A stretch of DNA of 57,796 nt, from positions 1 through 57,796 of the forward strand of contig DATEOX010000746.1 of NCBI GenBank assembly GCA_035273585.1, read 5' to 3'. The position numbers and the translations under genes were made by a program. Below are positions 13,444 through 34,960 of this stretch, piece by piece. The stretch's first letter is position 1; each line of letters opens with the position of its first letter. This DNA is from Thermoanaerobaculia bacterium. Its GTDB lineage: Bacteria; Acidobacteriota; Thermoanaerobaculia; Gp7-AA8. The notes below the pieces were generated by a model. That model was not told the origin of the DNA and ran no database searches. It saw only the letters and a list, made by a program, of their open reading frames with translations.

Positions 13444-13451
13444 TGCGCGGG

Positions 13452-15346: not shown

Positions 15347-15447
15347 TTGTTAATCCGGTGGTCGCTCGTTCGAGTCCAGCCGCCACAGCGAATTTCCTTT
15401 CAGAGACTTAGCAGAGATCCGCAGCGTCCGATCGAATGGATGGGCGA
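15347..15447 (+). repeat. Direct repeat copy B: partial tRNA-Asn (anticodon loop to 3' end, T-stem mismatch, no CCA) plus downstream flank; att-like
   Basis: 96/101 identity with 7539-7639. No matching tRNA 5' half upstream (ggagatgccag instead of the anticodon stem). Confidence 0.9.
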
Positions 15448-15584
15448 TGAGTGACGTCGAACGGCTGGGTCAACCTACCAAACCGCCGCGCCGAACCGAG
15501 AGTGAACTGGAGCGATTCTCCTGTCGGAGCTACGGCCGGTACAACGCGTCCGCCGCCAGCGGCAGACGCATGGGAGATCCTCCG

Positions 15585-16020
15585 ATGAAAGGCCGGATTC
15601 CAGGTTTCAGCTACAACCCCAAGAAGCACGTCGCTCACTTCTCACTGTACTTCCCGAGACCAACGGCAAGGTACGTCGCGAAAAGACGGCGCACGCGGAA
15701 TCGCGCGAAGAGGCCATCCGGTTGTGGCAGGCCTTCCGCGACGAGATCAGCGGTAAGCCGCCCGAGCCCCAAGCCCGCCGCACAACCCAAGGCGATGACG
15801 TTCCGAACATTTGTCACTGAGTACCTGCAGAAGATCTGCGCACGACGCGCGGAGAAGACGCTCGCCATCTATCGCACAATCGCCACCACAAGCCTCATTC
15901 CGTACTTCGGCGAGAAGCCTCTCGACAGCATTCGCTCATGCGACGTCGAGGACTTCATGGCCTCGATGCTCACCGAGTGCAGTCCCGCGTACGTCAACAA
16001 CTGCGTCCGCATGGCGATCG
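15585..16020 (+). pseudogene. Tyrosine-recombinase (phage integrase) remnant: N-terminal arm and core-binding region only, frameshifted, catalytic domain deleted
   Basis: MKGRIPGFSYNPKKHVAHFSLYFP | ETNGKVRREKTAHAESREEAIRLWQAFRDEI (other frame) | TFRTFVTEYLQKICARRAEKTLAIYRTIATTSLIPYFGEKPLDSIRSCDVEDFM (SAM-like core-binding). No R..HxxR..Y catalytic region follows. Confidence 0.6.
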
Positions 16021-16029
16021 CCGGGAGCG

Positions 16030-16377
16030 GCAGCGAGGTGCAGGTGGCCGACGCGCGGGAGTTCTTTCGCAGTCTCGCCGTCTTCATCGCGCCGCTGTTT
16101 GCGGGCGGCGGGATGCACATCAAGGTCCTCGAGGCGATGTCCCTCGGCACGCCGATCGTCGCAACCCCCCTCGACGCGGGCGGCATCGACGCGACCCACG
16201 AACACGACCTCCTCCTCGCCGAGGATGCGGAGTCGTTCGCGGATGCGATCGTGCGCCTGCTGCGCGATCGCGAAACGGGCCCGCCGCCTCGGCCGCAACG
16301 CGCGGGCGACCGTCGCGGCGCGCTACGATCGCGACACGCTCGCGCGCGATCTGCTCAGCTTCTACGAATCGCTGTGA
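16030..16377 (+). pseudogene. Family-1 glycosyltransferase C-terminal fragment (frameshift near 16265)
   Basis: FIAPLFAGGGMHIKVLEAMSLGTPIVATPLDAGGID...LLLAEDAESFADAIVRLL, then RRLGRNARATVAARYDRDTLARDLLSFYESL in another frame. Fused in frame to the integrase remnant in track ORF 15447-16415. Confidence 0.6.
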
Positions 16378-17138
16378 GCACAGCCCGTGCGACGCGCCCC
16401 CACGCCTTGCCGTAGTGCGCCGTCCCCCACGTCAGCAGATCGTCGCGGAGCCGCACCGGATCGTGCCGCCGGATATGGTCGGGAGCGATGGTGCGGCCAT
16501 GGCCGTGCGTCACGCGCGCCTCGTCGACGATCCGCACGCGCCACCCCGCGCCGCGCGCGCGCAGACAGAATTCGAGGTCCTGACAGTAGAAGCGGTAGCG
16601 CTCGTCGAGCGGCCCCGCATCGCGCCAGACCTCCGCGCGAAGCGCCATCGCCGCGCCGCTGACCCAATCCACGTCGCTCGTCGTCCGCGCTTTCCCTCGC
16701 CGAAAGAAGCGTGCGTACTGCCCGAGCCCCGTCACCGCCGCACGATCCAGGCGAGCGTCGGCGTCGCCCACCGCTCCACTGCGGCGTGCCGTCGTCATTG
16801 AGCAACCGCGCGCCCGCAACGCCGAGCGTAGAGTCGTTCGCGAATGCCTCCTCGAACGCGCGCAACGCCTCGCCGTCGACGATGGCATCGCTGTTGAGCA
16901 GCAGAATCAACCCGCCCCCCGCCTCCCTTATCCCCCGGTTCGCCGCCACCGCAAACCCGCCATTCGCCTCCATCCGAACGACCCGCACCCAAGGCACCTC
17001 CCGCGCCAGCAGCGCCGCCGTCCCATCGCTTGAGCCGTCATCGACGACGATTACCTCCACCGCCGCGCCAACCGCACGGCAGCATTGCAAGGTCATCGCA
17101 GCGGTGTTGAAGGTGGGGATGACGACGGAGAGGCTCAT
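16355..17138 (-). pseudogene. Family-2 glycosyltransferase, frameshift near 16770
   Basis: MSLSVVIPTFNTA...VVDDGSSDGT...LLNSDAIV (GT2 N-terminus), then VDWVSGAAMALRAEVW...YCQDLEFCLRARGAGWRV in the overlapping track ORF 16355-16888. Confidence 0.7.
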
Positions 17139-17318: not shown

Positions 17319-17858
17319 ATGCGAGTCCGATCGGTCGTTTTCGTGCTGTTGTTGTGGCTTTGCGTGCCCGCGCTGCTCGCGCAGGCCGATTCTGCCGGCG
17401 GTAGCGAAGGAGCGACCGCGGGCGAGACCGTGGAGACCTCCGACAGCCGCGGCGACGTGGCGCCGAGCACGCCCGTCGCACCGGTTCCGGGCTGGGTGCA
17501 CGTCGTCCGGCTTGCGGCGTTGGCGGGCCCGATCGCGTTTCTCGCCGCGGCGTGGCTCGCCGGCGGCATCGTCCACTACCGGCTCGTCCGCCGCGAGCAC
17601 GATCTCTTTCCGGCTGTGCGCGGCACGCGAATTCCGCAGACGATGCCGATGCTGATCAGCGCGGCGCTCTTCTTCGTGCCGGTGGCGCTTTTCGTCTTTT
17701 TCGAAATCCGCTCGCGCTGGGAGATCGCGCGGCACATCGGCGGCGTCGTCGACCAGTGGCATCCGGTGACGGCCCGCGCGTGGATGACGCTCTTCGGCTG
17801 TCTGGTGCTGGCGATCACTCCGTGGCTGTTCGCGCGCCGCGCCGACTCAGTGCGTTGA
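17319..17858 (+). CDS. Cluster gene 1: exported/membrane protein (signal peptide plus about 3 TM helices)
   Basis: GAGGAG precedes the ATG. MRVRSVVFVLLLWLCVPALLAQA signal, acidic linker, three hydrophobic segments. Stop lies 11 nt before the next start. Confidence 0.6.
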   Translation: MRVRSVVFVLLLWLCVPALLAQADSAGGSEGATAGETVETSDSRGDVAPSTPVAPVPGWVHVVRLAALAGPIAFLAAAWLAGGIVHYRLVRREHDLFPAVRGTRIPQTMPMLISAALFFVPVALFVFFEIRSRWEIARHIGGVVDQWHPVTARAWMTLFGCLVLAITPWLFARRADSVR

Positions 17859-17869
17859 GGAGAGGAACG

Positions 17870-20800
17870 ATGGCGAACTACCTGATTGCGGTGGGCGGTA
17901 CCGGGCAGCACGTCGCGCTCGCGGTCGCGGATTTCATCGCGCTGGCGCACGAGATCTTCCGCACGCCGGACGAATTTCCCGCCGTGAATCTGATCCTCGT
18001 CGACGCCGACCAGGCAGGCGGCGCCGATCAGGCCTCGGCGTGGCAGGAGGCGCGGGCGCGGCTCACGACGCTCGGTCTTTTCGGCGGCGACAGTTTCGAA
18101 TGCGTGCCGCTTCCCGTGCACTCGACGTTCGCCGACACGCGGAAGATGTACGAGTTCGTGAACCGTCTCGGCGCATCGTTCGGCCCGAATGCCGCCGACG
18201 CGCTGCTCCTGCACGAACAGCGCGAGGTCGACGTCACCAGCGGTTTCTACGCGCAGCCGCGCGTCGGCGCGATGATGGCCGACTGGCTCTTCGGCGAGGT
18301 CACGCGCGGCGAGGCCGTCAACCCGCAGCTTGCGCGCATCTTCCATCTCGCCGGTGATCCCGGAAACCGCATCGTCGTCGCCGGCTCGGGCGTCGGTGGC
18401 ACCGGAGCGGGGTTCGCGCCGGCGCTCCTCCGCCGCCTGTCGTCCGCGAACGGCGCCGGCGCCAGGCTGATGGCGCTGATGGCGACGGAGTGGTTCCGGC
18501 TCGCCGGCGCCTGCTCGAACCGCCTGTCGGAGTCGGTGCAGAAGACGAACGCGAACTCCGCGCTGTGGCACGCCGCTCACTCCGGTGCGGCCGCCGGCGT
18601 GCGGACCGTCCTGTTCGGACACCCGGACGTCTCGCGCGCGCCGGAGGAAGCGTGTCAGAACGGTGCGCTGCAGGCGCGCAAGGACAACCTGACCATTCCG
18701 TATTACGCCGCGGCGGCAGCGACGACGTTCTTCGCCGGCGACAACAGCGGCGGCACGCACATTCCGGCTGCGGCGTTCTCCGGCGATGCGCTCGCGCTGC
18801 CCGGCACGTTGCGGGTCACGCCGCGTCTCACGCTGAACGATCTGGTGCGGGCGAACGTCGAGGCGGTCGGCCGGCTGACGCTCGTCTCCGAGTACCTGCG
18901 CGAGCCATACCGCGGCTTCGTCATGCCGTTCCCGACGCTCACCGGCCGCATCGACGCGCTCGATGCGACCGAGCAGCCGCGCATAGACGCGGCGCTCGCC
19001 GCTAAGCGCGCGGCGCTCGCGAACCTCGGCAAGTCCGACGAAAAGCTGCCGGTCGCGCCGCGCCATCACCGCGGCCTTCCGACGCTGCGCGGCTGGATCC
19101 GCGGCAAGGTCGACGGTCCGTACGACCTCTGGAAAGACGCGCCGGTGCCGCAGCAGACGCCGGAGAGTCGCGCCGAGACCGTCGCCGCGGACGCCGACAG
19201 TGCCACGCTCCTCATCCGCAGGATCGGGTTCACCGGCCGCGTCGTCGGCGGCAATCTCGTCCCGGTGACGCAAGCGCAAGTCCGCGATCTGGTCACCGTC
19301 GACGACGTCGACGTTTCCAAAGTTCCGGCGTCCGACGCGGCCTCGCTGACCCTCGGCCACATCTTCCGCAGTTGGGAAGCGCGCGATGTCGAAGAGAAGC
19401 GGCAGATCGCCGACTCGCTCGTCGACGACGGCCGCGCGCGCCGCCCGGTGCTCGTCTGCGGCGACCACGGCGATCGTCCGCGTCAGTGGCTGAACCGCTG
19501 GCTGCTGCTAACGAACTTCCTCGTGGAAGGCCGCTTGACGGTGGAGCAACGCCCGCTGCCGTTCACCGCCGGGAAGGTTTTGTCGTATCGCGGCACGCCG
19601 GTCGGCGAGCTGTCGCGCGAATGGATTTGCCTGCCGCTGGTGAACGGCTACTGGAACGACGAAGCGACCGTCGCGGCGATGCACAGCGTCGCGTCGCGCC
19701 TCGAGACGCTGGCCACGTGGTGCCGCAACACCGCCGCGGTCGCGCGTTGCAAATCGTCGCGCCTGCCGGCGTGGCTGGACGTGCTCTTGTTCGCGACCGC
19801 CGACTTCGCCGGTGCGGCCAAGCAGCACACCGCGCAAAGTGTTCCCGTGCAGTGGACGGACGGCAGCACCGTGTCGCTCCCTCTGCCGAACGGCGTGAGC
19901 GGCGGGAACGACTGCGTCGCCGCTACCGCCGAGGCGTTCGGCGTGCTCGTCGAGCAGCCGCCGCCCGATGCGATGTCGCCGAAAGTGCGTGAGATCGTCG
20001 ACGAGATCTCGCGCATCGCGTTGACCGTGCCGAGCCTCGACGGCGGTGAAGCGAAAAGCGTGGTGTTCTCCGAGCTGCTGTCGCCCGCCGCGCGCGACTG
20101 CCTCTTCGGCGAGGTCATCGTCGACGTCGACGCACAGAAAGCCTGGCGTCTCACGTCGTCGTCGCGCATCGTCACGTCGGTCGCCGGTGAGGTGCTGACG
20201 GAGAACGTCGGCTGCTTCCGCACCGAGCAGCGGGCGAAGTGGCTCACGCCGGTCCGACACTCCTACATTCCGCTGCTGAAGTCCGGCGAGCTCGACGTGC
20301 GCACCGACGAACGGGGACAGGAGCTGCGCGTCACGCTGTCGCTGCACGGACGAACGTTCATGGAGTCGTACGCGGCGTCGCGCGTGCGGACGATCAATCC
20401 GCTCCTCCTGCACTGGCCGTCCTCGGTCGCCAGCGCGTCGGCGGATGTGACGGTGTTGTACGACGTCGCCGGCCACGGAGCAGGTCCGCAGACGCTCGAG
20501 GTGGTGATGCACGACGCCGCCTCGCGGTCCTGGAGCCGCTCACCGCAGCTGAGCCAGCGGCATTCGCTGCACTACGTCGCGACCGGATCGCGCATCCCGT
20601 ACGGCCTGACGTTCGAGCTCGAGAAGCGCGACGTCGGCTTCCTCAAGCTCGAGCGCAATCTTCGTCCTCTCGACGACGGCACGCAGCGCGTCGCCGTCGA
20701 CTTCGGCACATCGGCGACCGTCGTGGCGATCGAGGGCGGGCCGACTAATTCGCAGGTCGTCGACCTTCTGGAACCGCGCGCCGATGCGACCGCCGAGATA

Positions 20801-22156
20801 TGGAAGGGGAGCGAGCTGGCCGCGTTTCAGTGGTACGGCACGAGATCTGTCGACCCCGAGATCGTCACGAAGCGGCGCGCGCCGAGTGCGCTCGTCTACC
20901 TCGGCTCGCCCAACGACGAGCGTCCGAAACAGCCGCGGTACGGCGATCACGTGCTTCTCGACCAGGACGACTGGCGGTGGGAGAACAGCGATGCGTCACT
21001 GATGTTCGACATCAAGTGGACTCGCGACGCGGCGTACCGGCAGACGTATCTGCTTCATCACCTGGAGCAGTGCATCGCCGCGGCACTGAGCAAGGGGACA
21101 CTGCACAGCCGCAGCCTTTCCGTGACGTTCACGATGCCTCTGCGGCAGCGTGCGCGTGCGGAGGACTTCGTGCGCGAGATCGAGGCGGTTACAGCGGAGC
21201 TCGTCCGGCGGACCGGCGTCGCGATCGAGCCGCGCTTCGCGTACGAGTCCGAGGTCATCGCGCCGCCGGAAGCTCCGCGGGAGGACGTCGACGCGATCGT
21301 CGTCGCCGATCTCGGCGGCGGCACGCTCGACGTTTTCGCGAAGTACTTCGGCGCGGCGCGGCGGGCGGATTCGAACGAGGTCGTTTTCGATAGTGCGCGC
21401 ATCGGCGGCCATTCGCTCGTGGAGTGGCTGACCCGGGACATGCGCGGGGCGGAGCTTGCCGACTACCGGCGCCTCCTCCGTCTCGGGCAGGTCCGGCCGC
21501 TGGACGACAACTCGTCGCGCGTCGCGCGCGATTACTTCGACGTCGTGAAGCGCTTCACGGCCCTTTGGATGGATTCGGTCTGGCGGTACTGGACCGGCGA
21601 GGCGCGGCCGGGCCGGGTGCACGTGCAACTGCTCGGAATGGGGTGGTCGTTGCCTGGGTCCCCCGGCGATCAGATCGCGCTGCACCTCAGCGACATCGCG
21701 CGTGCCGTCGATTCGCCGCTGACGTACACGCGGTTCGAGGACGCCCTCGTGCGCGTCAATCCTAAAGAGCTTTTGGCGATGCGCGCGCTGCGCTGCCGCG
21801 GCGCGTCGAGCAGTGACTTCGTCAACTTCGCTCCAGCGTCGGTGAACGGAATTGAAGTGACGGTCGCGGGGCAGATCCGCCGCGACGACGAGGCGCTCGT
21901 CGGCCTCGGCGCCAACTCGCCCGTGGTGACGATCAGCCGCGCCGGCCTCGCGCGTCTCGGCAAGTTGACCGGCGCACGCGAGGAGATCGTCGCCGAAGTC
22001 CGCGACCGCACGCGCGGCTGTCTCACCTCGCGCTCGAACGGTGTCGACGTACACGATGGCGCCGTCATCGAAGGGACGAACATCTGGGTTGCCAGTCCGC
22101 TCGCGATTGCAGCGGAGATGTACACGCGGCAAGTGCTGCTGCACGTGCACGGGTGA
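17870..22156 (+). CDS. Cluster gene 2: 1428-aa fusion of an N-terminal FtsZ/tubulin-like GTPase domain and a C-terminal Hsp70/actin-like (ASKHA) ATPase domain
   Basis: Start MANYLIAVGGTGQHV follows GAGGAGAGG. Four collinear FtsZ-like motifs: IAVGGTGQHVA (FtsZ IGVGGGGGNAV), LILVDADQ (AVNTDAQ), SGFYAQPRVGAMM (GAGANPEVGRNA), VVAGSGVGGTGAGFAP (AAGMGGGTGTGAAP). ASKHA motifs: VAVDFGTSATVVA (20690-20728), VVADLGGGTLDV (21299-21334), IGGHSLVEWL, VQLLGMGWSLPG. Confidence 0.75.
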   Translation: MANYLIAVGGTGQHVALAVADFIALAHEIFRTPDEFPAVNLILVDADQAGGADQASAWQEARARLTTLGLFGGDSFECVPLPVHSTFADTRKMYEFVNRLGASFGPNAADALLLHEQREVDVTSGFYAQPRVGAMMADWLFGEVTRGEAVNPQLARIFHLAGDPGNRIVVAGSGVGGTGAGFAPALLRRLSSANGAGARLMALMATEWFRLAGACSNRLSESVQKTNANSALWHAAHSGAAAGVRTVLFGHPDVSRAPEEACQNGALQARKDNLTIPYYAAAAATTFFAGDNSGGTHIPAAAFSGDALALPGTLRVTPRLTLNDLVRANVEAVGRLTLVSEYLREPYRGFVMPFPTLTGRIDALDATEQPRIDAALAAKRAALANLGKSDEKLPVAPRHHRGLPTLRGWIRGKVDGPYDLWKDAPVPQQTPESRAETVAADADSATLLIRRIGFTGRVVGGNLVPVTQAQVRDLVTVDDVDVSKVPASDAASLTLGHIFRSWEARDVEEKRQIADSLVDDGRARRPVLVCGDHGDRPRQWLNRWLLLTNFLVEGRLTVEQRPLPFTAGKVLSYRGTPVGELSREWICLPLVNGYWNDEATVAAMHSVASRLETLATWCRNTAAVARCKSSRLPAWLDVLLFATADFAGAAKQHTAQSVPVQWTDGSTVSLPLPNGVSGGNDCVAATAEAFGVLVEQPPPDAMSPKVREIVDEISRIALTVPSLDGGEAKSVVFSELLSPAARDCLFGEVIVDVDAQKAWRLTSSSRIVTSVAGEVLTENVGCFRTEQRAKWLTPVRHSYIPLLKSGELDVRTDERGQELRVTLSLHGRTFMESYAASRVRTINPLLLHWPSSVASASADVTVLYDVAGHGAGPQTLEVVMHDAASRSWSRSPQLSQRHSLHYVATGSRIPYGLTFELEKRDVGFLKLERNLRPLDDGTQRVAVDFGTSATVVAIEGGPTNSQVVDLLEPRADATAEIWKGSELAAFQWYGTRSVDPEIVTKRRAPSALVYLGSPNDERPKQPRYGDHVLLDQDDWRWENSDASLMFDIKWTRDAAYRQTYLLHHLEQCIAAALSKGTLHSRSLSVTFTMPLRQRARAEDFVREIEAVTAELVRRTGVAIEPRFAYESEVIAPPEAPREDVDAIVVADLGGGTLDVFAKYFGAARRADSNEVVFDSARIGGHSLVEWLTRDMRGAELADYRRLLRLGQVRPLDDNSSRVARDYFDVVKRFTALWMDSVWRYWTGEARPGRVHVQLLGMGWSLPGSPGDQIALHLSDIARAVDSPLTYTRFEDALVRVNPKELLAMRALRCRGASSSDFVNFAPASVNGIEVTVAGQIRRDDEALVGLGANSPVVTISRAGLARLGKLTGAREEIVAEVRDRTRGCLTSRSNGVDVHDGAVIEGTNIWVASPLAIAAEMYTRQVLLHVHG

Positions 22157-22998
22157 TCGCGATGACGAGATCACCACTGCTCGCGCTGCTGTTCCTGCTC
22201 ACGTTCGCCGTGTCGTTCGCCGATGGCGCGCCGAGCCTGAAACCGCCGGCACCCGCGGCGCGAGAAGCCGCGTACGCGCCGGCCCCTGCCGCGCCGTCGG
22301 TCGCCGCCATCCCGTGGCAACTGACCGTCGGCTCGCTGGTGAACGCGTTGCTCATCGTCCTCGTGATCGTCGGTCTCGTTCTGCAGCTGCGTAGCGCGGA
22401 GCGGCGGTTGGTCGCGACGCTGAGATACCAGGACCGCGACGCTGCAGAACGCGAAAAACGGCAGCAGACCGACCTGCAGCACTGGAAGACGGAGCTGCGC
22501 AAGGAAATCGAATCGCTGCATGCGGCGCTCGCGCAGATTCCGGCGGACACCGAGCGGCTGATCGCGTCGAAGTTGCCGAAACAGCAGCAGACGCCGGCGC
22601 AAGCGGCGTCGTCGCGGCTGGCGTCCGCGGTGCTCGACGTTCGCGATGAGCGGCGTGGCGAGGATGGGCTCGCGCAGTTGCTGGTCGCCGCGAACCGCAT
22701 CGTCCAGGAGAGCTCGATGACGCTGGAGACGTTCCGCGAACGGATGGCGGGCGTGTCGTCGCGTGTGTTGCCGTACGGGCAGGTCGTGGCCGATGCGCCC
22801 GTCGCGTTCATCGTCGAGCACGGCGGGTCGGCGTACGCGGTGCCGAACGTCGTGAAGCCGACGCGGTTTCCAAACGACTGGTTCAACCGCGCCGACTTCG
22901 GCGTGAACGACGAGATCCGCCGCGTTGTCTCGCTGCCCAGACTACGGCGACGCGGTGATGGGTTCGACGTCGTGGAGCGGGGAGTATTCGAGCGATGA
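22153..22998 (+). CDS. Cluster gene 3: membrane protein with signal peptide/TM, coiled coil and C-terminal globular domain
   Basis: GTG overlaps the gene 2 stop (GTGA). LLALLFLLTFAVSFADG; TM LVNALLIVLVIVGLVLQL; heptad-like charged region. No recognised family. Confidence 0.6.
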   Translation: MIAMTRSPLLALLFLLTFAVSFADGAPSLKPPAPAAREAAYAPAPAAPSVAAIPWQLTVGSLVNALLIVLVIVGLVLQLRSAERRLVATLRYQDRDAAEREKRQQTDLQHWKTELRKEIESLHAALAQIPADTERLIASKLPKQQQTPAQAASSRLASAVLDVRDERRGEDGLAQLLVAANRIVQESSMTLETFRERMAGVSSRVLPYGQVVADAPVAFIVEHGGSAYAVPNVVKPTRFPNDWFNRADFGVNDEIRRVVSLPRLRRRGDGFDVVERGVFER

Positions 22999-24389
22999 GC
23001 GTGCTCTCGCTGCAGTCTGCGACGCACGCTCGCGCCCGCCGGACGTTCTGGGAGCCGTGGGCGGCGCTCGCCGTCGCCGGGGCGCTTTACTTGCGCGCGG
23101 CCGGCGCGCAGTGGGGCGGCGTCGTCGCACTCGGCGTCGAACTGCTCCTCGCCGTCGTCATGCGAGCGCGATTGCTCCGACGCGCGGAGGAGGAGATCGA
23201 ATGGCTCGATGAGCACCTTCCGCGGGAGCTGGCCATCGGCGACGCCGATCGCCTGATCGGCAGCGCCGCGGAACGGGTGGAGGGGATGTTCGGCACCGCC
23301 TCGAGCACCGTCCTCGCGACCGGCATGGCGGCGTCGGCGTTCCTCCTCTTGTTCTACGCCGGTGCGGGGGTCACGGGCGGAATCGTCGCCGTCGCACCGA
23401 AGGCGTTTGTCGCGACTGGTTACGCCATCCTCTGCGCGCTGGCGTTCACGCGCGACGCGCATCACCTCATCGCCGGCACGATCGAGCCGCTGCGCCGCAG
23501 GAAGCTCGACGAAGCGGGCCGCAACGGCGGCATCGTCAGCGTCGCCGTTGCACCGCCCGCCGAGCCGCCGGTGGCGTCGAAATTCGAAGACTTGATCTCG
23601 CAGCTCATCTCCATGCAGATCGCGCATCTGCGGGAGCTGAACGAGACCAACCGCCTTCTCTCCGCCTCCGCGTCGGAGCGCATCGACGAGGACTCCGGCG
23701 CCGTCCGCGTCAAGCTGTCGAAGGGGCTGACGGAGTTTCGGAAAGGCGTCGAGCGACTCGGTGAAACCGTCGAGTCGCTGAACGGCAGGCTCGACGCGCT
23801 GACGACCGACGAATCGGCGCTCTTCGAGCACCATCGCCGCGAGCTCGTCGCCGAGATCGCACAGCTGCCGCAGCAGGTCGCCGACCGCGCCGCCGGCATG
23901 ATGAGCGGATCGATCGCGCAGGTTGAAGAGCGCGTGCGGCAAGCGCTGCAGACCGTACATGAGGATGAAAACCGCCGCGCGCGCGACTACCTCACGAACG
24001 AGTTCGCGAAAATGCGCGACCAGTTCGAGCTGACGGAGCGTTCCGTGTCGGCGATCGCGACGCGGTTCAACGTCGTCGTCGGATCGCTCGACGAGCTCGC
24101 ATCGGCATTCGACCGGAGCGCGAAATCGGTCGTCACCAGCGCCGCCGACTTCACGCGTGAGGCCGAGTCGCTTGCGACGTCCGTTACCACCGCGCTCGGC
24201 CAGCTCGAGGACGCCGGTGCGACGAAGGCGTCGCTGCTCGCGCCGTTGACCGAAGCCGCGACGGCGGTGCGGAAAGCGTCATCCGTGGTCGCCACCGACA
24301 TGCGCAAAGTCGCCGCCGAACGCGAGCGCCTCGGGCGGGTGCGGCTCAAGATCCTCGAGCTGCTCCCGAATCAGCAGGGCAACTCATGA
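22995..24389 (+). CDS. Cluster gene 4: MotA/ExbB/TolQ-like channel subunit with about 300-aa C-terminal helical tail (ZorA-like architecture)
   Basis: ATGA overlap on both sides. Four hydrophobic helices. GMFGT (23283-23297; ExbB GLFGT) and VAPKAFVATG (23391-23420; ExbB VAPGIAEALLAT) are collinear. The remaining residues are helical and low in proline. Family call rests on weak motif similarity. Confidence 0.55.
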   Translation: MSVLSLQSATHARARRTFWEPWAALAVAGALYLRAAGAQWGGVVALGVELLLAVVMRARLLRRAEEEIEWLDEHLPRELAIGDADRLIGSAAERVEGMFGTASSTVLATGMAASAFLLLFYAGAGVTGGIVAVAPKAFVATGYAILCALAFTRDAHHLIAGTIEPLRRRKLDEAGRNGGIVSVAVAPPAEPPVASKFEDLISQLISMQIAHLRELNETNRLLSASASERIDEDSGAVRVKLSKGLTEFRKGVERLGETVESLNGRLDALTTDESALFEHHRRELVAEIAQLPQQVADRAAGMMSGSIAQVEERVRQALQTVHEDENRRARDYLTNEFAKMRDQFELTERSVSAIATRFNVVVGSLDELASAFDRSAKSVVTSAADFTREAESLATSVTTALGQLEDAGATKASLLAPLTEAATAVRKASSVVATDMRKVAAERERLGRVRLKILELLPNQQGNS

Positions 24390-25090
24390 TCGGGCGCGGC
24401 GTCAACTACTGGATCTCGTGGGCCGATCTCACGTTCATGCTCTTCATCGCCGGCCTTGCCACCGTGGCGATCAGCGAGGAGCATCGCGGCGACGCGGAGC
24501 GGCAGCTCGACGCCGCCCGGGTCGAGATCGCCCGGATGCGCAGGACGATGAATCCCTGCGCGAACGCGGAGTCCTTTCTGAACGGCTTCTCGGCGTGCGT
24601 CGCGCGGACCACCGGGCGCCGGCAGGCGCAGCGCAGCGGCTGTTTCGTCACCGTCGGCGAGGACGTAATCCGCTTCGCGAACGGCAAGGCCGTGCCGATC
24701 GACCCGGCGTCGGCGGATTCGGTGGCGGGCTGTCTTTACAACAATGCGCTGCAGTTCGCGGCGGCGGATCCCGGCGCGTTCGACGCGATCACCATCAACG
24801 TTGACGGACACACCGATTGCGTCGGCGATGCGAGCGACAACCAGGCGCTCGGCGCCGACCGTGCGCTGAGCGTCTACTCGCGCGTGCTGGCGCGCGCCGA
24901 GGATGACAGGAGCTGGACGACCGCCGACGCCAAGCGTGGATTCCTGAGCCGCATCGCCGTCCGCTCGTTCGGCGAGACCCGGCCGGTGGAACGGTCGCGG
25001 TGCACGACCGCGACCGGGTGGGCGGATGACCGGCGGGTCGTCGTCTCCGTGCAACTCGCGACCGAGCGCGCGAGGGACGGCCGCTCGTGA
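24386..25090 (+). CDS. Cluster gene 5: MotB-like stator/anchor protein (TM Asp plus OmpA-like peptidoglycan-binding domain)
   Basis: YWISWADLTFMLFIAGL parallels MotB WKIAYADFMTAMMAFF (Asp codon 24425-24427). NVDGHTDCVGDASDNQALGADRALSVYSRVL is the OmpA/MotB C-terminal signature (24797-24889). Confidence 0.8.
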   Translation: MIGRGVNYWISWADLTFMLFIAGLATVAISEEHRGDAERQLDAARVEIARMRRTMNPCANAESFLNGFSACVARTTGRRQAQRSGCFVTVGEDVIRFANGKAVPIDPASADSVAGCLYNNALQFAAADPGAFDAITINVDGHTDCVGDASDNQALGADRALSVYSRVLARAEDDRSWTTADAKRGFLSRIAVRSFGETRPVERSRCTTATGWADDRRVVVSVQLATERARDGRS

Positions 25091-25100
25091 GGAGAACCGC

Positions 25101-25280
25101 GTGATCTCGATCCTGTTGATGGTGTCGGTCGCCGTGCTCCTCGCTGTCGTGCTCGTGCTGGCGCGCCGCACCGGTCAGCGGCAGACGCGGCTCGAGCTCG
25201 AAAACCGCGCGATGCAGGTCGAGCTCGATCGCCATCGCGACGTCGCGCATTCAATTCTGCGGGAACTGCAGAGCCCATGA
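25101..25280 (+). CDS. Cluster gene 6: 59-aa single-TM protein
   Basis: GTG 7 nt after GAGGAG. ISILLMVSVAVLLAVVLVLA plus a charged helix. Stop overlaps the next ATG (ATGA). Confidence 0.45.
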   Translation: MISILLMVSVAVLLAVVLVLARRTGQRQTRLELENRAMQVELDRHRDVAHSILRELQSP

Positions 25281-26491
25281 AGAACGTCGTCGTCATCGCA
25301 GCTCTCGTGAGCTTCGCCGCATGCGATCCCGCCGGCGGCGAGCGACCGCTGATCGCGACTTGCAGGCCGGCCGTCACGGTGCTCTTTCCGGCGGCGAAAC
25401 CGGCTTCGGTGAAAGCGCCTTCCGCGCCGCAAGCCGGCGAGGTTGTCCAGGTGTACTGGGACGTTTCGCGCTCGATGCACGACTTTTCGGTGACCCGCCG
25501 CGCCGAGGAGTTGACGGACGATCTCGCGCCGGTCGTCGCGGCACTCGACAGCGGCGTCCTCCTGCAGGCGCACGCCGCGAGCATCGAGCACTACGGAGTC
25601 GGCGAAACGATCGTGCCGCTGCCGAGCGCGCGCGCCGCACTGCATCCCGCCGCGAAGCGTACCGCGCTGCATCTTGCGGCGGAGCAGATCGGCGGCGCAC
25701 TCGCGAACGGCGCCGCGCAGGCCGCACTCGTCGTTTCCGACATGGAGGTCGACGCGGTGCCGCGGACGTCCGCGGGCGATGCGACGGTCTGCGGCAACGT
25801 GCCGCTGCCGAGCACCGGCCAGGCAGGGCCGCTCTTCGGCCGCTGTTTCGAAAGCGCGGTGCTCGCATCCGGCGCTTCCCGCACGCGCGCCAGCCTGCTT
25901 GCGCACGTGTTCCGCAAACGCTCGCACGGCCGCGAGCTGTTCATCCTGCTGCTCGCGACCGATCGCGCGTTCGGGACGCGCATCTCGAACGAGATCGCCC
26001 GCCGCCTCGACTTTACGCGTCACGTCATCTTCGATTCCGGCTCCGTTTCGGCCGGCAACGTCGCCGGCTGCAGGATGGCGTTGTTTTCGGAGGACATGAA
26101 CCGCAGCCGCACAACGTGCGGCGTTAAGTGCTTCGATCCCGAGCTCGCCATTCAGGCGGAATGCGACGTTCGCCGCGACGCGATGAATGCCTGGATCGAG
26201 CCGGTCGGGCAGGGCGGCGACGGCGTCAGCTACGAGTCGGTACCGAAGAAGCGCGGCGACCGCGAGCAGCAGGCGGTCGTCCGCTTCGCGGTTCCGTGCA
26301 GCGCGCGGGCGGGGCGCTTCCAGGCGACGGTGCCGTATTCATGGCGGCAACAGACTCCGTGGTCCGCGGATCGCGCGGACCCGTTCGCGCAGCGCCCCAG
26401 CGTCCGCGATCTGTTCGACAGTCTCGCCGACGCCATCGTCCGCACCGTCGCGCCGCCACGACTGCGGATCGGGATCGATCTCGTCAAATGA
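25277..26491 (+). CDS. Cluster gene 7: vWA-like lipoprotein
   Basis: Lipobox-like VSFAAC. MIDAS-like VYWDVSRSM (DxSxS, 25460-25474) and ALVVSDMEVD. Cys-rich C-terminal part. Confidence 0.55.
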   Translation: MKNVVVIAALVSFAACDPAGGERPLIATCRPAVTVLFPAAKPASVKAPSAPQAGEVVQVYWDVSRSMHDFSVTRRAEELTDDLAPVVAALDSGVLLQAHAASIEHYGVGETIVPLPSARAALHPAAKRTALHLAAEQIGGALANGAAQAALVVSDMEVDAVPRTSAGDATVCGNVPLPSTGQAGPLFGRCFESAVLASGASRTRASLLAHVFRKRSHGRELFILLLATDRAFGTRISNEIARRLDFTRHVIFDSGSVSAGNVAGCRMALFSEDMNRSRTTCGVKCFDPELAIQAECDVRRDAMNAWIEPVGQGGDGVSYESVPKKRGDREQQAVVRFAVPCSARAGRFQATVPYSWRQQTPWSADRADPFAQRPSVRDLFDSLADAIVRTVAPPRLRIGIDLVK

Positions 26492-26607
26492 ACGGCGGCG
26501 CTTCTCCGGCAGTCGATCGCGCGATCAGTTGCGGACTCGCGGTCGCGATCGTCTGCATCGCGCTCGTTTTCGCCGCCGTACTGCTCGTCGGTGCGCTTGC
26601 TGACTGA
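26488..26607 (+). CDS. Cluster gene 8: 39-aa single-TM peptide
   Basis: ATGA overlap with gene 7. CGLAVAIVCIALVFAAVLLVGAL. Below the track length cutoff as an independent ORF. Confidence 0.4.
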   Translation: MNGGASPAVDRAISCGLAVAIVCIALVFAAVLLVGALAD

Positions 26608-26616
26608 TGGCTCGTC

Positions 26617-27087
26617 ATGACTCGTGAAACTGCCATCACCGGCGCGATTCTCGGCGAGCTTCTCCCCGAGCTGCAGTACGCCGCGCCTGTTCTCCTGGAG
26701 CGCTCCGATCGCGGCGATCCGCTCGTCGCGTCGACCTCGCCGGCCGACATCGGGTTCGAGACCGGTGCGGTCGATTCGGTGCTGCTCGAGCTCTTCAAGA
26801 CGCTCGTGCCGTACGTCAAGGCGGCGCTCGGGTGGGGCGTGCTGCGCGTCGTGCAGACGTGGCTGGCGTCGCAGCGCGAGTCGCGGCACCACGCGGAGCT
26901 GGTGGCGAGCCTCACCGCGCTCCTCGCGGAGAACGCGAAGCTGCGGCAAGCGTTCGAGAGCATCGCGGCCGTGCGGAGCCGCCGTGAGGGAGTGGCGGCG
27001 TCGACGGCGGACGTCGTCGATTCGATCGCCGACGCCGCCGAACGGATCGGCGACGCCGCCGATCCCGACGAACCGCAGCGCGACTGA
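26617..27087 (+). CDS. Cluster gene 9: hypothetical soluble helical protein
   Basis: 156-aa ORF, 9 nt after gene 8, GC-rich third positions. No recognised motif. Confidence 0.55.
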   Translation: MTRETAITGAILGELLPELQYAAPVLLERSDRGDPLVASTSPADIGFETGAVDSVLLELFKTLVPYVKAALGWGVLRVVQTWLASQRESRHHAELVASLTALLAENAKLRQAFESIAAVRSRREGVAASTADVVDSIADAAERIGDAADPDEPQRD

Positions 27088-27097
27088 AGACGCGGCA

Positions 27098-29851
27098 ATG
27101 AGCCCGATCGCCCTCGTCGCAGTCGTTCTGATCGGAGCCGTCGCGGCTTTCGACCGTCCGGCGCGAACGCCCGGAAATCTCACGCCCATTCAGCTGATCA
27201 GCGCCCTCGGCGCATGGGCGCTGATCCTCGCGAACGCCTCGGCCGTCGCGATCGCGATCCGGGACGGCTCCGGCGTTCTCCTTTGCACGGCGACCGGCAC
27301 GATCGCGATCGCGATCGTCTCGATGATTCGCCAGAGCACCGCCGCTCTTCCCGACCGGGACGCGCCGCAGTCGTTGACGCTCGTCGTCGATGATCTGAAG
27401 CGCCTGCTCGGCGGCGCACCGCGGCTCGGAATGGCGTCGCTCGACGCCGTGGTCGTTCATGGCCGCTGCCCCGGCGTCGGGGTGGCCGTGGCGCGGCAGG
27501 GACGGGTTGAAGTACGTGTCCGCCGCGACGTTGCGGAGTGGCTCGAGAGCCACCGCCGGCGCGGCGGCGCCGGGGCGGAGGTGGTGGCGAGCTTCGCGCG
27601 GTTCATCGTCCTGCACGAGGTCGCTCACGTCCTGAACGGCGATCACCGGACGTTTCGTTTCGTGCGCAGTGTGCTGATCGCGCAGCTGGTGTGGCTGCCC
27701 GGCGCCGCGGCGGCGGCCGCAGCCCGCGGGGTCGATTCGGGCGCATCCGGCACACCACTCGCGGTCGCCGCGTCAATCGCGTTTCTGCTCGTCGCGCAGA
27801 GCCTCGTGGCGCGGAAGTTCATCGCGGAGCGCGAGCGATGGGCGGACTGGCGAGCGATGCAGACGCTGCCGCCCGCCGATTCGGCGCGATTGCTGGAGCG
27901 GCGGGGGCGGCGGCGAAACGGCCGGAATCCGACCGAGCTCGAGAAGTTGATGAACGATCTCAAGGTCCACGCGTCGTCGGGCGGCGACGCCGGTCTGCTC
28001 GCGCGACTCATCGCGCTCGTGTGGCCGGACGGCGACGCCATTCATCAGCGGTCGGAGAGACTGGAAGGCGATCGCGCCGGCGGCGCACCGCGGCCGATGC
28101 TGTGGGCGGCGCTGACCGGCATGCAGTGCGGCTTCTTGTCGCTGTCTGCGTTGATGACCGTGATGCTCGCGATCCCTCCTTCGATGCATTTGCCGCCCGC
28201 CACCGTCGCGATGGCGCTCGTTACATGGATCACCGCGCCCGCCGTGACGTTCTGCGCCCTCCGCGTCGACCTCGCGCGCATGGCCGTACGCACGCTCGCG
28301 CTCACCGGCAGGCGTGTTCGCGTCGGCGGCGCCTTCTATCTGGCGTTCGCCGCCGCCGCGCTGACGTTGAACGGATTCCAGGCTCGCTTCGACGCCGCGC
28401 CGATGCCGGCCGTACTGCTGTTCGCGCTCCTGCTGATGGTCGCCATGCTGGTCGGTCTCTGTGTTTGGGCGTCGACCGTAGTCGGCATCCGCGACGGCGG
28501 CGGCGAGCTGCGGCCGACGCCGCGTGCGGCGTGGGTCGGCATGTTCCCGATTCTCGCCGGCATGGCGCTGGTGCAGGTTCCGTTGAGCGTGGCAGCCGCG
28601 CAATGGGTCGGCGCCGGTTCGTTTCGGAGCGGCAGGTGGGTTCCGGTGGTCCTTCTCTCGTTCGCGACCTTCGCGGTCAGCAGCGCGATGGCGAGGAGCA
28701 CGAGCCGGGTACTGCGCACGGCCGCTCCGATGGCGCTGCTCGACACGCCGCCGCCCGTCTACGGTTTCCGTGTTTTCTGGTGCAACTTCTATATCGATCT
28801 GTCAAAAACGACGCTGGCGCGCGCCGCGGCGGGCGCGATGGCGGTGCAACTCGCGACGGTGCCATTCTTCGTGCTCACAGCAGCCTTGATGATGCAGGCG
28901 GCGCTGCGCGGATTCGGCGCGGAACGCGCGATCACGGTCGCGTTCGTCGGCGCGTTCGGAGTGATGGCGCTCATCCTCGTCATTCCCGATCGCTACAGCG
29001 CGTACGGCGGCCCATCAGCGCGCCTGCTCGACACCGATCGGCTGCGGCTGTTCGAAGACCTTCTCGCCGCCGCGCGGGCCGCAAATCCGGCGGCGGCGGA
29101 CCGCCTGAACGCGTCATTCGCGCGGTGGATTCGCGACGACCGTTTTCCCGATGCGCTTCTCCCGCATCCGGAGGCCGTCTGGCCGCTCGCGCCGCTTCTC
29201 AGCCTCGTGCGTCTCGCGAGCGCGACCGGCGAGAGCGCCGCCGTCGGGCGCTGGCGCGGCCGGATCGAGCACGCTCTCCGGCAGATCGTCGTCGACGACG
29301 CAGTGGCGGTCGCACCGCGCCAGCCTCCGTCGCTTTACTGGACCGTGCTCGCCGCCACGATCATCGAGCAGGCAAACCTCCGCGCTGCGTTCCCGTTCGA
29401 GGCGATGCTCGACCGGATCGAGACGTTGGTCGAAGAGCGTTTGGAACGCGGCACCGCGAACCTCGTCGCCGATCTGGTCGCGGCGTCGCAGCTGCTGCGC
29501 CGCCACCGCCGCGCCAGCCCCGATCCGCAGCGCGTGCACGAGCTCGTGCGCACGTCATCGCTCGTGTCGCGTCCTCTGTTGCGCCAATCGCTGGCGGAGC
29601 TCGCCGAGCTCGCAGAGCTGACCGGCGATGCTGCGTTGCGCGAGCGGCTCGGGCCGATCGTCCGCTCGCGGATGTGGGAAGGCCTGCAACTGAATCCGCG
29701 GAAGGACGTGCTGCTGGTGCTCGACTGCTATCTCGCCGCCGCATCGCTCGGCCAACAGGACGGACGTCACGACGCCGCCGGCCTCGTCGTCGGCGAGCTC
29801 GCCGAGCGGATGTCGGAGGAGCTGAGTGCAGTCGTCGATCGCGTTCAGTAG
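27098..29851 (+). CDS. Cluster gene 10: polytopic membrane HExxH metalloprotease (M48/M56-like) with large C-terminal helical domain
   Basis: ATG at 27098, within the 1075-aa track ORF whose first part is an alternate frame of gene 9. LHEVAHVLNGDH (HExxH at 27614-27628). More than 10 hydrophobic segments. C-terminal 300 aa are Leu/Ala-rich and helical. Confidence 0.65.
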   Translation: MSPIALVAVVLIGAVAAFDRPARTPGNLTPIQLISALGAWALILANASAVAIAIRDGSGVLLCTATGTIAIAIVSMIRQSTAALPDRDAPQSLTLVVDDLKRLLGGAPRLGMASLDAVVVHGRCPGVGVAVARQGRVEVRVRRDVAEWLESHRRRGGAGAEVVASFARFIVLHEVAHVLNGDHRTFRFVRSVLIAQLVWLPGAAAAAAARGVDSGASGTPLAVAASIAFLLVAQSLVARKFIAERERWADWRAMQTLPPADSARLLERRGRRRNGRNPTELEKLMNDLKVHASSGGDAGLLARLIALVWPDGDAIHQRSERLEGDRAGGAPRPMLWAALTGMQCGFLSLSALMTVMLAIPPSMHLPPATVAMALVTWITAPAVTFCALRVDLARMAVRTLALTGRRVRVGGAFYLAFAAAALTLNGFQARFDAAPMPAVLLFALLLMVAMLVGLCVWASTVVGIRDGGGELRPTPRAAWVGMFPILAGMALVQVPLSVAAAQWVGAGSFRSGRWVPVVLLSFATFAVSSAMARSTSRVLRTAAPMALLDTPPPVYGFRVFWCNFYIDLSKTTLARAAAGAMAVQLATVPFFVLTAALMMQAALRGFGAERAITVAFVGAFGVMALILVIPDRYSAYGGPSARLLDTDRLRLFEDLLAAARAANPAAADRLNASFARWIRDDRFPDALLPHPEAVWPLAPLLSLVRLASATGESAAVGRWRGRIEHALRQIVVDDAVAVAPRQPPSLYWTVLAATIIEQANLRAAFPFEAMLDRIETLVEERLERGTANLVADLVAASQLLRRHRRASPDPQRVHELVRTSSLVSRPLLRQSLAELAELAELTGDAALRERLGPIVRSRMWEGLQLNPRKDVLLVLDCYLAAASLGQQDGRHDAAGLVVGELAERMSEELSAVVDRVQ

Positions 29852-30510
29852 GTGTTGACGCCGCACGAGAACATCAGCTGGAGCGCGACGCGCGGAGAAC
29901 CGTGGATGCTCTCCTTCACGATCGCGCGGTCGAAGAAGCGCTGATCGACGTCCGGCAATACGGCCCTGACGGCGTCGGCGATGCAGCGGCATTGCGGCTC
30001 CCCATGCTGTCCCGAATACGCCTCGACACAACCTGCAACGAAGCGCGAACTGCCGGAAGTTCGCTTCAGGTAGATGACGATGCCGCGCGCGAGGAGCGCC
30101 GCTTCCGGTCCGTTGCACGGAATGTCGTCCATCAGCGACGTTCCTGCCGCGAATACCGACGCGCGATCGGGCGGCGACGGCAGGCTTTCCTGAAGGCGTG
30201 CTTGCCGCTTCTGCAGGCCGATAGACAAAGCCGCCGCGCCGGTGAACCGCTCCACCAGCGCGCGGCCTTCCACGTCCCGCGGCAGCTTGCAGGACGTTCG
30301 CAGCCGCTGTGCAATACCCGCCAGGAAAAACTGCTCGTTCTGCGTGAACGCGTAGCGGCAACTTTCCTCGACGGCAAAGCGGGCGTCGCCGAACGGGAGG
30401 GATCGATAGCGTTCCGGTGTGGGGCCGCAGGCAGTCTGTGCGTTGGCTGCAACGCTAACGAAAGCCGCCGCTGCGACGATCGCGGCGCGAACATGCTGCG
30501 CCTTCGTCAA
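29845..30510 (-). CDS. Secreted Cys-rich protein
   Basis: Proposed TTG start overlaps the upstream stop (TTGA), giving MTKAQHVRAAIVAAAAFVSVAANA signal and 10 Cys. The 3' end overlaps the gene 10 stop by 7 nt (convergent). Start choice is uncertain. Confidence 0.5.
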   Translation of the reverse strand: MTKAQHVRAAIVAAAAFVSVAANAQTACGPTPERYRSLPFGDARFAVEESCRYAFTQNEQFFLAGIAQRLRTSCKLPRDVEGRALVERFTGAAALSIGLQKRQARLQESLPSPPDRASVFAAGTSLMDDIPCNGPEAALLARGIVIYLKRTSGSSRFVAGCVEAYSGQHGEPQCRCIADAVRAVLPDVDQRFFDRAIVKESIHGSPRVALQLMFSCGVNTY

Positions 30511-32508: not shown

Positions 32509-32525
32509 CCAGAGGAGAACGGTGT

Positions 32526-34247: not shown

Positions 34248-34259
34248 AGGAGAAATGCC

Positions 34260-34954: not shown

Positions 34955-34960
34955 GCGACC

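Follow-up and report, generated by a model that had tools for sequence, protein, structure and literature searches.

A rare gene cassette encoding a tubulin-like/Hsp70-like fusion protein together with a candidate ZorAB-type motor

Introduction

In Zorya defence, the membrane motor ZorAB relays a phage signal through the tail of ZorA to cytosolic effectors (PMC11946911, PMC11890865). A second theme was set out in 2010 by Makarova and Koonin, who described FtsZl1 operons with vWA, OmpA, kinase and GTPase genes and predicted a role in membrane remodelling (PMC2875224). In 2020, Kaur et al. recast related neighbourhoods as conflict systems of the DO-GTPase/GAP1 type, in which tubulin-plus-vWA and HSP70-plus-GrpE are separate, non-overlapping themes (PMC7159879). 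Here we describe a cassette of eight genes, g1 to g8, in which a protein combining a tubulin-like with an Hsp70-like domain (g2) is encoded together with a ZorB/MotB homologue (g5) and its probable ZorA-like partner (g4). The cassette lies in a stretch of 57,796 nucleotides (contig DATEOX010000746.1; hereafter the window), which is a contig of a metagenome-assembled genome from a Thermoanaerobaculia bacterium (Acidobacteriota).

An earlier note on this DNA had read ten consecutive genes, g1 to g10, as one envelope-anchored system. We followed up that reading with profile, structure and synteny comparisons. By analogy with Zorya, we tentatively propose, at a little less than an even chance, that a Zorya-like envelope sensor-motor would signal to g2 as a cytoskeletal-type nucleoside triphosphatase (NTPase) effector.

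A fusion of tubulin-like and Hsp70-like domains

The product of g2 is a cytoplasmic fusion of a tubulin/FtsZ-fold domain with an Hsp70/ParM-like (ASKHA) ATPase domain (Table 1). It is 100% identical to the protein of NCBI locus tag VJ276_25515 and has no transmembrane (TM) segment by hydropathy. An AlphaFold2 (AF2) model of residues 1–930, computed from an 81-sequence alignment, reached a predicted local distance difference test (pLDDT) score of 88.8 and a predicted template modelling (pTM) score of 0.86. When this model was compared with the PDB by Foldseek, all of the top 50 matches were tubulin, gamma-tubulin or CetZ2 (probability 0.97–1.0, E 1.3e-3 to 7e-3, 255–377 aligned columns). The GSGVGGTGAG segment of the N-terminal domain resembles the tubulin signature, and GGTGAG at residues 176–181 is conserved.

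A profile of the C-terminal third, searched against the PDB, matched the nucleotide-binding domain (NBD) of mortalin (4.1e-5), DnaK (1.2e-4) and ParM (5.6e-4), and all of the top 60 matches were Hsp70 or ParM. In the HMMER alignment, ysEShAaa of g2 falls on INEPTAAA of Hsp70 and DLGGGTLD on DLGGGTFD. DFGTS, E1126 and DLGGGTLD thus align with the Hsp70 phosphate-1, INEPTAA and phosphate-2 elements; VDFGTSATVVA is the phosphate-1 and ADLGGGTLDV the phosphate-2 motif. Together with the catalytic glutamate and the GG (adenosine) motif, they follow the canonical Hsp70 order and spacing. Both halves of the fusion had been proposed in the earlier note and are borne out by these comparisons.

Taken alone, the g2 sequence gave no significant match in Pfam, NCBIfam or PDB-sequence searches; Tubulin_2 did not match it, and Tubulin appeared at E 0.18, below both Pfam thresholds. 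Its relatives carry the family signal. Tubulin matched 14 and Tubulin_2 matched 9 of 22 diverse fusion relatives, and these were the sole recurrent Pfam matches. Relatives of the N-terminal domain also occur as stand-alone proteins, and in all ten that were scanned Tubulin (PF00091) and/or Tubulin_2 (PF13809) were the sole Pfam matches, one of the ten (P0119) lying above the curated cut-off (Tubulin_2, 27.7 bits against a cut-off of 27).

Residues in both nucleotide pockets are strictly conserved. Across 22 sequences from several phyla, G9, G10, G12, G176, G177, T178 and G179 are invariant in the N-terminal part, as are D944, G946, E1126 and D1147–G1151 in the C-terminal domain. Because this invariance extends across phyla, both pockets are probably functional. 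A Walker A pattern search of g1–g10 gave one unsupported match, ALANLGKS at residue 382 of g2, which sits inside the tubulin-like/helical region.

The gene is naturally split in some lineages. In a deltaproteobacterium (L026) and a Micrarchaeota archaeon (L027), g2 is split into a tubulin-like gene of 459–471 aa and a gene of about 925–995 aa for the remainder, and in a member of the Myxococcota (L023) the g2-like sequence is also in two pieces. This fusion/fission pattern confirms a domain boundary near residue 460.

A ZorB homologue and its probable ZorA-like partner

The g5 protein begins with WISWADLTFMLF, which resembles the MotB pore helix. Its single TM helix carries Asp14 (WISWADLTF) and is followed by an OmpA-type peptidoglycan-binding domain. 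The protein matches Pfam OmpA at 3.6e-6, above the curated cut-off, and the PADLOC ZorB model at 4.6e-9. A family profile of 14 sequences, searched against the PDB, matched type I ZorB (8vvn_B) over its full length at 4.3e-31, followed by MotB (7.8e-16), type II ZorB (8vvi_A, 1.5e-14) and EcZorB (8qyd_F, 1e-13). 8VVN is the type I ZorAB of Shewanella and 8VVI the type II ZorAB of Sulfuricurvum kujiense (PMC11890865); 8QYD is the E. coli ZorAB complex. W9 and D14 of g5 are invariant in the 14-sequence alignment, and the TM aspartate is retained in 21 of 22 aligned g5-like ORFs (open reading frames). Since 8vvn_B is the best profile match, above MotB, the g5 family is closest to ZorB. Judged by its sequence family, g5 is a ZorB/MotB homologue, in agreement with the MotB/OmpA-like anchor retaining the TM aspartate that the earlier note had recognized.

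The g4 protein has three TM helices, with a membrane core of about 150 aa and an alpha-helical cytoplasmic tail of about 315 aa. A profile of the TM part that combined the window clade with the distant clade found EcZorA as the best PDB match (8qyh/8qyy/8qyk/8qyd, E 0.0036–0.036), followed by type II ZorA (8vvi_F, 0.073) and MotA (0.23–2.5). In ZorA, Thr147 and Ser184 form a polar ring around Asp26 of ZorB. The combined-profile alignment places the G-x-x-G-T and A-L-x-S-S motifs of the family on these two residues; in the g4 of the window the corresponding positions are S113 and T141, and T141 is invariant in the window clade. PADLOC ZorA models matched the tail of g4 and were the top match for 8 of 10 g4-like proteins, mostly through the tail; JetC and LmuB matches appeared as well, as coiled-coil noise. 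In a comparison by hhalign, the window-clade and distant-clade g4 profiles matched each other at 42% probability. We conclude that g4 is probably ZorA-like. The stronger argument is its position, directly upstream of, and translationally coupled to, the gene for a clear ZorB homologue. In the proteobacterial locus L013, a g4-like protein carries an N-terminal FHA domain (Pfam 6e-8), suggesting that some lineages control the stator-like subunit through phospho-threonine.

Extent of the cassette

Ten ORFs follow one another on the forward strand at window 17319–29851. Successive genes share a GTGA start/stop overlap at 22153 and ATGA overlaps at 22995, 24386 (g4 stop, g5 start), 25277 and 26488 (g7 stop, g8 start), and all non-overlapping junctions among g1–g10 are gaps of 9–11 nt. 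The G+C content at third codon positions (GC3) in the called frames is 0.82–0.90, typical of coding sequence in the window. The earlier note had described this layout correctly. Its view that the ten genes form one system did not hold.

To define the extent of the unit, we searched 36 loci around g2 relatives by tblastn and iterative hidden Markov model (HMM) searches. Every gene of the ten has homologues in related loci except g9 and g10, for which none was found in any of the 36. In six close relatives (L006–L011; g2 67–72% identical), g1–g7 are syntenic; g8 was found in three of them (L007, L009 and L011). The genes that follow g8 belong to a different block. Window 26617–36505 is syntenic with positions 9502–19551 of contig L044, at 71–91% amino-acid identity, and runs in the order g9, g10, a convergent pair of 221-aa and 472-aa genes, genes of 190, 572, 62 and 176 aa, and a 515-aa AAA ATPase. 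L044 carries this g9/g10-to-AAA block without g1–g8, and the genes 5' of g9 are unrelated there. Contig L043 carries the same island, with the cassette (g1, g2, g3, g4, g5 onward) placed after the caspase pair. The insertion point of g1–g8 within the island differs between the window and L043, and L044 lacks these genes altogether; they therefore form a discrete cassette. On this comparative evidence the predicted functional unit is the eight genes g1–g8, about 9.3 kb, and not ten, and g9 and g10 are assigned by synteny to the caspase/AAA island rather than to the cassette.

The alternative is a single ten-gene operon in which the HExxH protease g10, with g9, would be an integral processing subunit. 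The two genes do lie directly behind g8 in the same orientation, separated by gaps of 9–10 nt, and because no convincing terminator was found between g8 and g9, g9–g10 may be co-transcribed with the cassette here; g10 relatives also share a contig with the cassette in at least two other assemblies. Beyond the synteny of L043 and L044, the 66 homologues of g10 all come from Thermoanaerobaculia-type assemblies, whereas the cassette core spans several phyla. We regard this alternative as highly improbable and largely refuted by synteny.

The island itself looks like a separate, uncharacterised conflict-type module. Its 472-aa gene is caspase-like, with Peptidase_C14 found in the L044 orthologue. 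The g10 protein is polytopic, with HEVAH (HExxH) at residue 173; it scores 18.4 bits against Pfam Peptidase_M48 (cut-off 20.3) and matches NCBIfam HtpX at 2e-4. Paralogues of g10 often occur twice on one contig.

Table 1. Coordinates of the genes, domains and neighbouring features in the window and in related loci
Feature	Sequence	Position	Strand	Description
g1	window	17319-17858	+	179 aa
g2	window	17870-22156	+	1428 aa
g2 N-terminal tubulin/FtsZ-like domain	window	17870..19159	+	about aa 1-430; AVGGTGQH (7-14), GSGVGGTGAG (172-181)
g2 middle region	window		+	about aa 430-930; confident mixed alpha/beta, no fold assigned (AF2)
g2 C-terminal Hsp70/actin-fold ATPase domain	window	20657..22153	+	about aa 930-1428; VDFGTSATVVA, E1126, ADLGGGTLDV, GGH
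g3	window	22153-22998	+	281 aa
g4	window	22995-24389	+	464 aa
g5	window	24386-25090	+	234 aa
g6	window	25101-25280	+	59 aa
g7	window	25277-26491	+	404 aa
g8	window	26488-26607	+	39 aa; last cassette gene
g9	window	26617-27087	+	156 aa; outside cassette
g10	window	27098-29851	+	917 aa; outside cassette
Cassette g1-g8	window	17319-26607	+	predicted functional unit
ORF 5' of the cassette	window	15447-16412		Phage_int_SAM_3 segment and glycosyltransferase-1 fragments
ORF 5' of the cassette	window	16365-17138	-	truncated GT2
Signalling genes	window	7804-14476		two hybrid histidine kinase/response-regulator genes, KaiC-like ATPase (12493-13440), HisKA fragment
Split g2	L026	8360-14395		deltaproteobacterium
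Split g2	L027	10001-14218		Micrarchaeota archaeon
g2-like sequence in two pieces	L023	7152-12847		Myxococcota
g4-like gene with FHA domain	L013	7711-9768		proteobacterial
Tandem pair of the system	L018	94-23888		Rhodothermales
Two TonB_2/TonB_C genes	L004	17080-20230		P0035 locus
FliMN_C gene after g5-like gene	L041	9803-10996		398 aa

On the 5' side, two ORFs carry an integrase-like segment with glycosyltransferase fragments and a truncated glycosyltransferase, respectively (Table 1), and because of them the left flank of the cassette looks decayed or rearranged. Flanking repeats, att-like sites, promoters and terminators were looked for around the cassette, and nothing exceeded chance. The signalling genes further upstream are unrelated to the cassette.

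Distribution and gene order

The cassette core is conserved, rare and patchily distributed. An exhaustive phmmer search with g2 residues 1–1200 against 1.84 billion protein representatives returned 139 clusters at E<=1e-3. About 60 of them are full-length fusions of 1400–1800 aa, and many others are stand-alone N-terminal domains of roughly 450–500 aa. In a genome scan covering one genome for each of 185,579 species, we found 29 g2 loci. Carriers include Thermoanaerobaculia and other Acidobacteriota, Bryobacterales, Rhodothermales, Bacteroidota, Myxococcota, deltaproteobacteria, Accumulibacter and two archaea.

A core set of g1-like, g2, g7, g4-like and g5 genes recurs in rearranged order in Thermoanaerobaculia, Bryobacterales, Rhodothermales, Bacteroidota and deltaproteobacteria. 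The order in the window is g1-g2-g3-g4-g5-g6-g7, and in the distant clade it is g1-like, g2, a gene of about 150 aa, g7-like, g4-like and one or two g5-like genes. For this core, the conserved neighbourhood implied by the earlier note is upheld across phyla. Some Rhodothermales genomes carry two or three copies (L018, L021, L033 and L034), arranged as a tandem pair of the system in L018. An extra, truncated g2-like gene of 1114 aa was also seen among these multi-copy loci.

Envelope proteins of the cassette

The remaining cassette genes encode envelope proteins. The g1 product is a small membrane protein with an N-terminal signal- or lipobox-like segment and three TM helices, as judged from the ORF and its hydropathy. 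It is 54–71% identical to the copies in close relatives, and the L001–L003 copies were recovered by iterative HMM searches. In most bacterial loci, the position directly 5' of g2 is occupied by a protein of 146–231 aa with a lipobox and three to four hydrophobic segments, and in the archaeal L027 by a 147-aa membrane protein; homology of these distant proteins to g1 was not detected. The bitopic g3 product combines a signal-like segment and a single TM helix with a coiled-coil stretch and a globular C-terminal domain that is conserved; the protein is 36–45% identical in close relatives. In L001, L012, L013, L014 and L035, g2 is followed by proteins with a TM segment, a linker and a C-terminal domain bearing an AW[FL]VPN-type motif. 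Both g6, with a GTG start, and g8 encode single-TM peptides. The g6 peptide is 52–64% identical in the six close relatives, and L001 and L003 have a gene of 40–41 aa at its position.

The g7 product is an exported lipoprotein with the lipobox SFAAC, and a g7-like gene adjoins g2 in 27 loci. Its AF2 model (pLDDT 85, pTM 0.84) shows an alpha/beta domain at about residues 56–253, followed by a C-terminal beta-sandwich. The family conserves D62-x-S64 and D155, and in the model D-x-S comes after strand 1 and D155 after strand 4, the same placement as in vWA domains. The Pfam VWA family matched none of 21 g7 family members, and a PDB profile search gave nothing relevant and no vWA. Foldseek with the whole model against the PDB found nothing at E<=1e-3; the top 50 contained no vWA protein, and the top matches were immunoglobulin-like, with query-normalised TM-scores <0.2. 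Of the earlier note's description as a vWA lipoprotein, the lipoprotein part stands and the vWA part is unconfirmed.

These parts invite comparison with a surface machine. In Myxococcus, Agl-Glt combines a 5:2 motor with a cytoskeletal NTPase and an outer-membrane lipoprotein adhesin. A force-transducing machine for adhesion or gliding-type movement would follow the same logic here, with a motor, an actin/tubulin-fold protein and a lipoprotein, and the carriers do include Bacteroidota, Rhodothermales and Myxococcota. In flagella, the FliMN_C module is part of the rotor on which stators act. In L041, which carries a relative of the cassette at 33% identity (g2 homologue P0040), the g5-like gene is directly followed by one for a 398-aa protein with FliMN_C (flagellar C-ring/SpoA; Pfam E 5.9e-8). 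Force transducers of vWA type have been predicted to work with TolQR-like motors (PMC12204202), but g7 is not demonstrably of the vWA type. Besides the FliMN_C gene of L041, the surroundings of the cassette showed no gliding or flagellar gene. A sporadic, multi-copy and island-borne distribution fits a motility organelle poorly, and the motor is missing in some archaeal relatives. We consider an adhesion or gliding function improbable.

A proposed sensor-motor and its output

We propose that window 17319–26607 encodes a trans-envelope machine. In the inner membrane, g4 and g5 would form a ZorAB-type, peptidoglycan-anchored, proton-driven 5:2 stator, to which g5 would contribute the pore helix with Asp14 and the OmpA-type wall anchor, and g4 the membrane ring and the long cytoplasmic helical tail. 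The proteins g1, g3, g6, g7 and g8 would serve as envelope accessory or sensor subunits, with g7 as a periplasmic lipoprotein and g3 as a bitopic linker, and g2 would be the cytoplasmic output. By analogy with Zorya, an envelope perturbation, most likely phage attack, would engage the wall anchor and start the motor. The g4 tail would then relay the signal into the cytoplasm, where g2 may be recruited and assemble or be remodelled at the site as the effector. A stronger version, in which the ZorAB-type wall-anchored 5:2 rotary motor would directly control the assembly or conformational cycle of a tubulin-fold plus actin/Hsp70-fold polypeptide, appears unlikely at present.

As to what such a machine would do, a conflict or anti-phage role is the one we favour, though we hold it as uncertain. 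It is suggested by the affinity of g5 to ZorB, the rarity and patchiness of the family, its multiple copies per genome, and a cassette that is present, absent or shifted within one caspase/AAA island. Conflict systems had already been predicted to include tubulin and HSP70 components (PMC7159879). We also count in its favour the heterogeneous flanks, which include transposases, caspase, CHAT and AAA_16 genes; in L006, caspase and CHAT genes adjoin the cassette.

Several observations weigh against this proposal. The first group concerns the motor. For g4, the statistical case for ZorA-likeness is weak and varies with the alignment used: the window-clade profile alone found no PDB match, the distant-clade profile alone found just type II ZorA (8vvi_F, E 0.7), and the g4 TM profile, compared by hhalign with three aligned sequences of ExbB, TolQ and MotA, gave an uninformative 3% probability. 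The g4 of the window lies below every curated ZorA or MotA_ExbB threshold in Pfam and NCBIfam, and Pfam MotA_ExbB matched neither it nor any of ten diverse g4-like proteins, for which Pfam gave coiled-coil noise alone. The MotA/ExbB-like channel of the earlier note thus finds weak support, from the long-tailed, ZorA-like architecture and the weak best PDB match to ZorA, and none from Pfam. A single-sequence search with the g5 of the window reached generic OmpA domains alone, so the ZorB assignment holds at family level. In L004, L028 and the archaeal loci, g2 (and g7) occur without a detectable ZorAB pair, which indicates that the motor is not universal. In L004, two TonB_2/TonB_C proteins are encoded directly downstream of the g1-like, g2 and g7-like genes, a hint that another motor or force transducer may operate in some versions.

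The second group concerns the output and its context. By eye, no conserved acidic residue was seen in g2 residues 227–252, where a T7-type loop is expected; canonical tubulin-type polymerisation, or a GTPase coupled to polymerisation, is therefore uncertain for g2. Makarova and Koonin raised the same caveat for FtsZl1 (PMC2875224). PADLOC returned weak ZorA/ZorB matches (g4, g5), no other defence component and no complete system. Among 134 flanking ORFs from 22 loci, a Pfam census found a heterogeneous set, with transposases in 5, AAA_16 in 3 and caspase in 2, the rest being ordinary genes; with no control set, it lends weak support to a defence context. The argument from mobile-element scars in the earlier note is likewise only anecdotal. 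Searches for g2 in plasmid, phage and IMG/VR collections gave no match. Finally, Pfam, NCBIfam and PADLOC searches found no nuclease, protease or typical effector among the scanned cassette proteins (g1–g5 and g7).

The lack of a nuclease or toxin domain in these proteins also suits a different function, proposed by Makarova and Koonin for FtsZl1 operons, a housekeeping or stress machine for envelope remodelling with no conflict role. In such a machine, g2 would polymerise on the inner membrane, and the wall-anchored motor and the lipoprotein would couple the polymer to the envelope, with vesiculation, membrane repair or outer-membrane tethering as possible outputs. All accessory proteins are envelope proteins, the theme of a tubulin-like protein with OmpA and exported partners fits FtsZl1 operons (PMC2875224), other 5:2 motors, Tol-Pal among them, serve envelope maintenance (PMC12204202), and TonB-like genes lie near some loci. 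A housekeeping role is harder to reconcile with a family as rare as 29 loci in 185,579 species genomes and 139 clusters in 1.84 billion representatives, with several or tandem copies in some genomes, and with a cassette whose presence and place within one island vary among close relatives. The B subunit is also nearest to ZorB, and not to TolR, ExbD or MotB. We regard remodelling without a conflict role as somewhat unlikely.

Should the stronger version, direct control of g2 by the motor, prove correct, the cassette would represent a new class of envelope-triggered immune or remodelling machine, whose effector is a cytoskeletal-type polymer or clamp and not a nuclease, and stator-type motors would for the first time be linked in function to proteins of the tubulin/actin folds. 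The known Zorya types join ZorAB to DNA-targeting effectors; a tubulin/Hsp70-fold partner would show that the same sensor-motor has been reused with a different output, and the cassette would offer a tractable test of signal transmission by the tail. Independently of function, g2 naturally joins the two great cytoskeletal/chaperone NTPase folds; it is conserved in several bacterial phyla, is split in some lineages and is also found in archaea. FtsZl1 has been without an assigned function since 2010, and the cassette is a compact, transferable set with which to weigh membrane remodelling against defence.

Comparison with known systems

The cassette matches no named system. In direct scans of the window proteins, OmpA (g5), a weak M48 match (g10) and weak ZorA/ZorB matches were all that was found; a PADLOC scan of g1–g5, g7, g9 and g10 contained no ZorC, ZorD, ZorE, ZorF or ZorG, and full-text literature searches for ZorA or ZorAB with tubulin or Hsp70 returned no description of the combination. 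The earlier note had likewise recognized no characterised system. What is new is the tubulin-like/Hsp70-like fusion and its pairing with a ZorAB-like motor. The kinds of component were partly anticipated, since operons with tubulin-like, vWA and OmpA genes (PMC2875224) and tubulin or HSP70 components of conflict systems (PMC7159879) had been predicted.

Among 5:2 motors, the cassette pair shares with MotAB/PomAB a W-x-x-(A/Y)-(A/T)-D-(L/F)-M motif and an OmpA-like domain in the g5 family, and the G-x-x-G-T and A-L-x-S-S-x-x-G motifs of g4-like proteins resemble TM2 and TM3 of ExbB/TolQ (ExbBD, TolQR). The long g4 tail sets it apart from MotAB/PomAB, ExbBD, TolQR, AglRQS and GldLM; among these motors, such a tail is a ZorA feature. 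A flagellar or Ton/Tol function was rejected, as no flagellar, Ton, Tol or gliding context surrounds the cassette.

With the DO-GTPase/GAP1-N2 systems, the cassette has in common tubulin- and HSP70-family NTPases as presumed assembling effector or regulator modules and a membrane-proximal and variable setting with a predicted conflict role; the partners in those systems are vWA or exported proteins. It differs in that tubulin and HSP70 are fused in g2, and no MotAB/ZorAB-like motor was described there. Membership was rejected: none of g1–g10 is a P-loop GTPase gene, and Pfam and NCBIfam gave no GTPase/GAP1 match.

The resemblance to FtsZl1/Tubulin_2 proteins (PMC2875224, PMC9871819) lies in a divergent FtsZ/tubulin-like N-terminal GTPase domain within a large multidomain protein, and relatives of the g2 N-terminal domain score at or just above the Tubulin_2 cut-off. 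FtsZl1 operons also have OmpA-domain and exported or membrane partners and a sparse, patchy distribution. In FtsZl1 the tubulin-like domain is followed by a coiled coil and an alpha-helical C-terminus, whereas g2 places a mixed alpha/beta region ahead of an Hsp70-like ATPase. Neither a P-loop GTPase nor a protein kinase is encoded in the cassette, a vWA partner is unconfirmed, and the 2010 work described no stator A subunit.

The g2 protein also departs from canonical Hsp70 (DnaK): it has no substrate-binding domain (its PDB matches cover the NBD only) and no Pfam HSP70 match, and neither DnaJ nor GrpE was found in Pfam scans of the operon and flank ORFs. Compared with Hsp70 and ParM, the ASKHA domain of g2 is fused C-terminally to a tubulin-like domain.

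Zorya offers the closest parallel. As in ZorB, g5 combines an Asp-bearing TM helix with a peptidoglycan-binding domain; as in ZorA, g4 combines a small membrane core with a long helical tail. The A gene adjoins the B gene and is translationally coupled to it, and a soluble cytoplasmic partner accompanies the motor. At about 315 aa, the g4 tail is shorter than that of EcZorA (about 500 aa). The type-defining soluble partners, ZorC and ZorD, ZorE, or ZorF and ZorG, gave no PADLOC match among the scanned proteins. The cassette adds the envelope proteins g1, g3, g6, g7 and g8, and its soluble partner, with no recognisable nuclease, is a 1428-aa fusion of tubulin-like and Hsp70-like domains.

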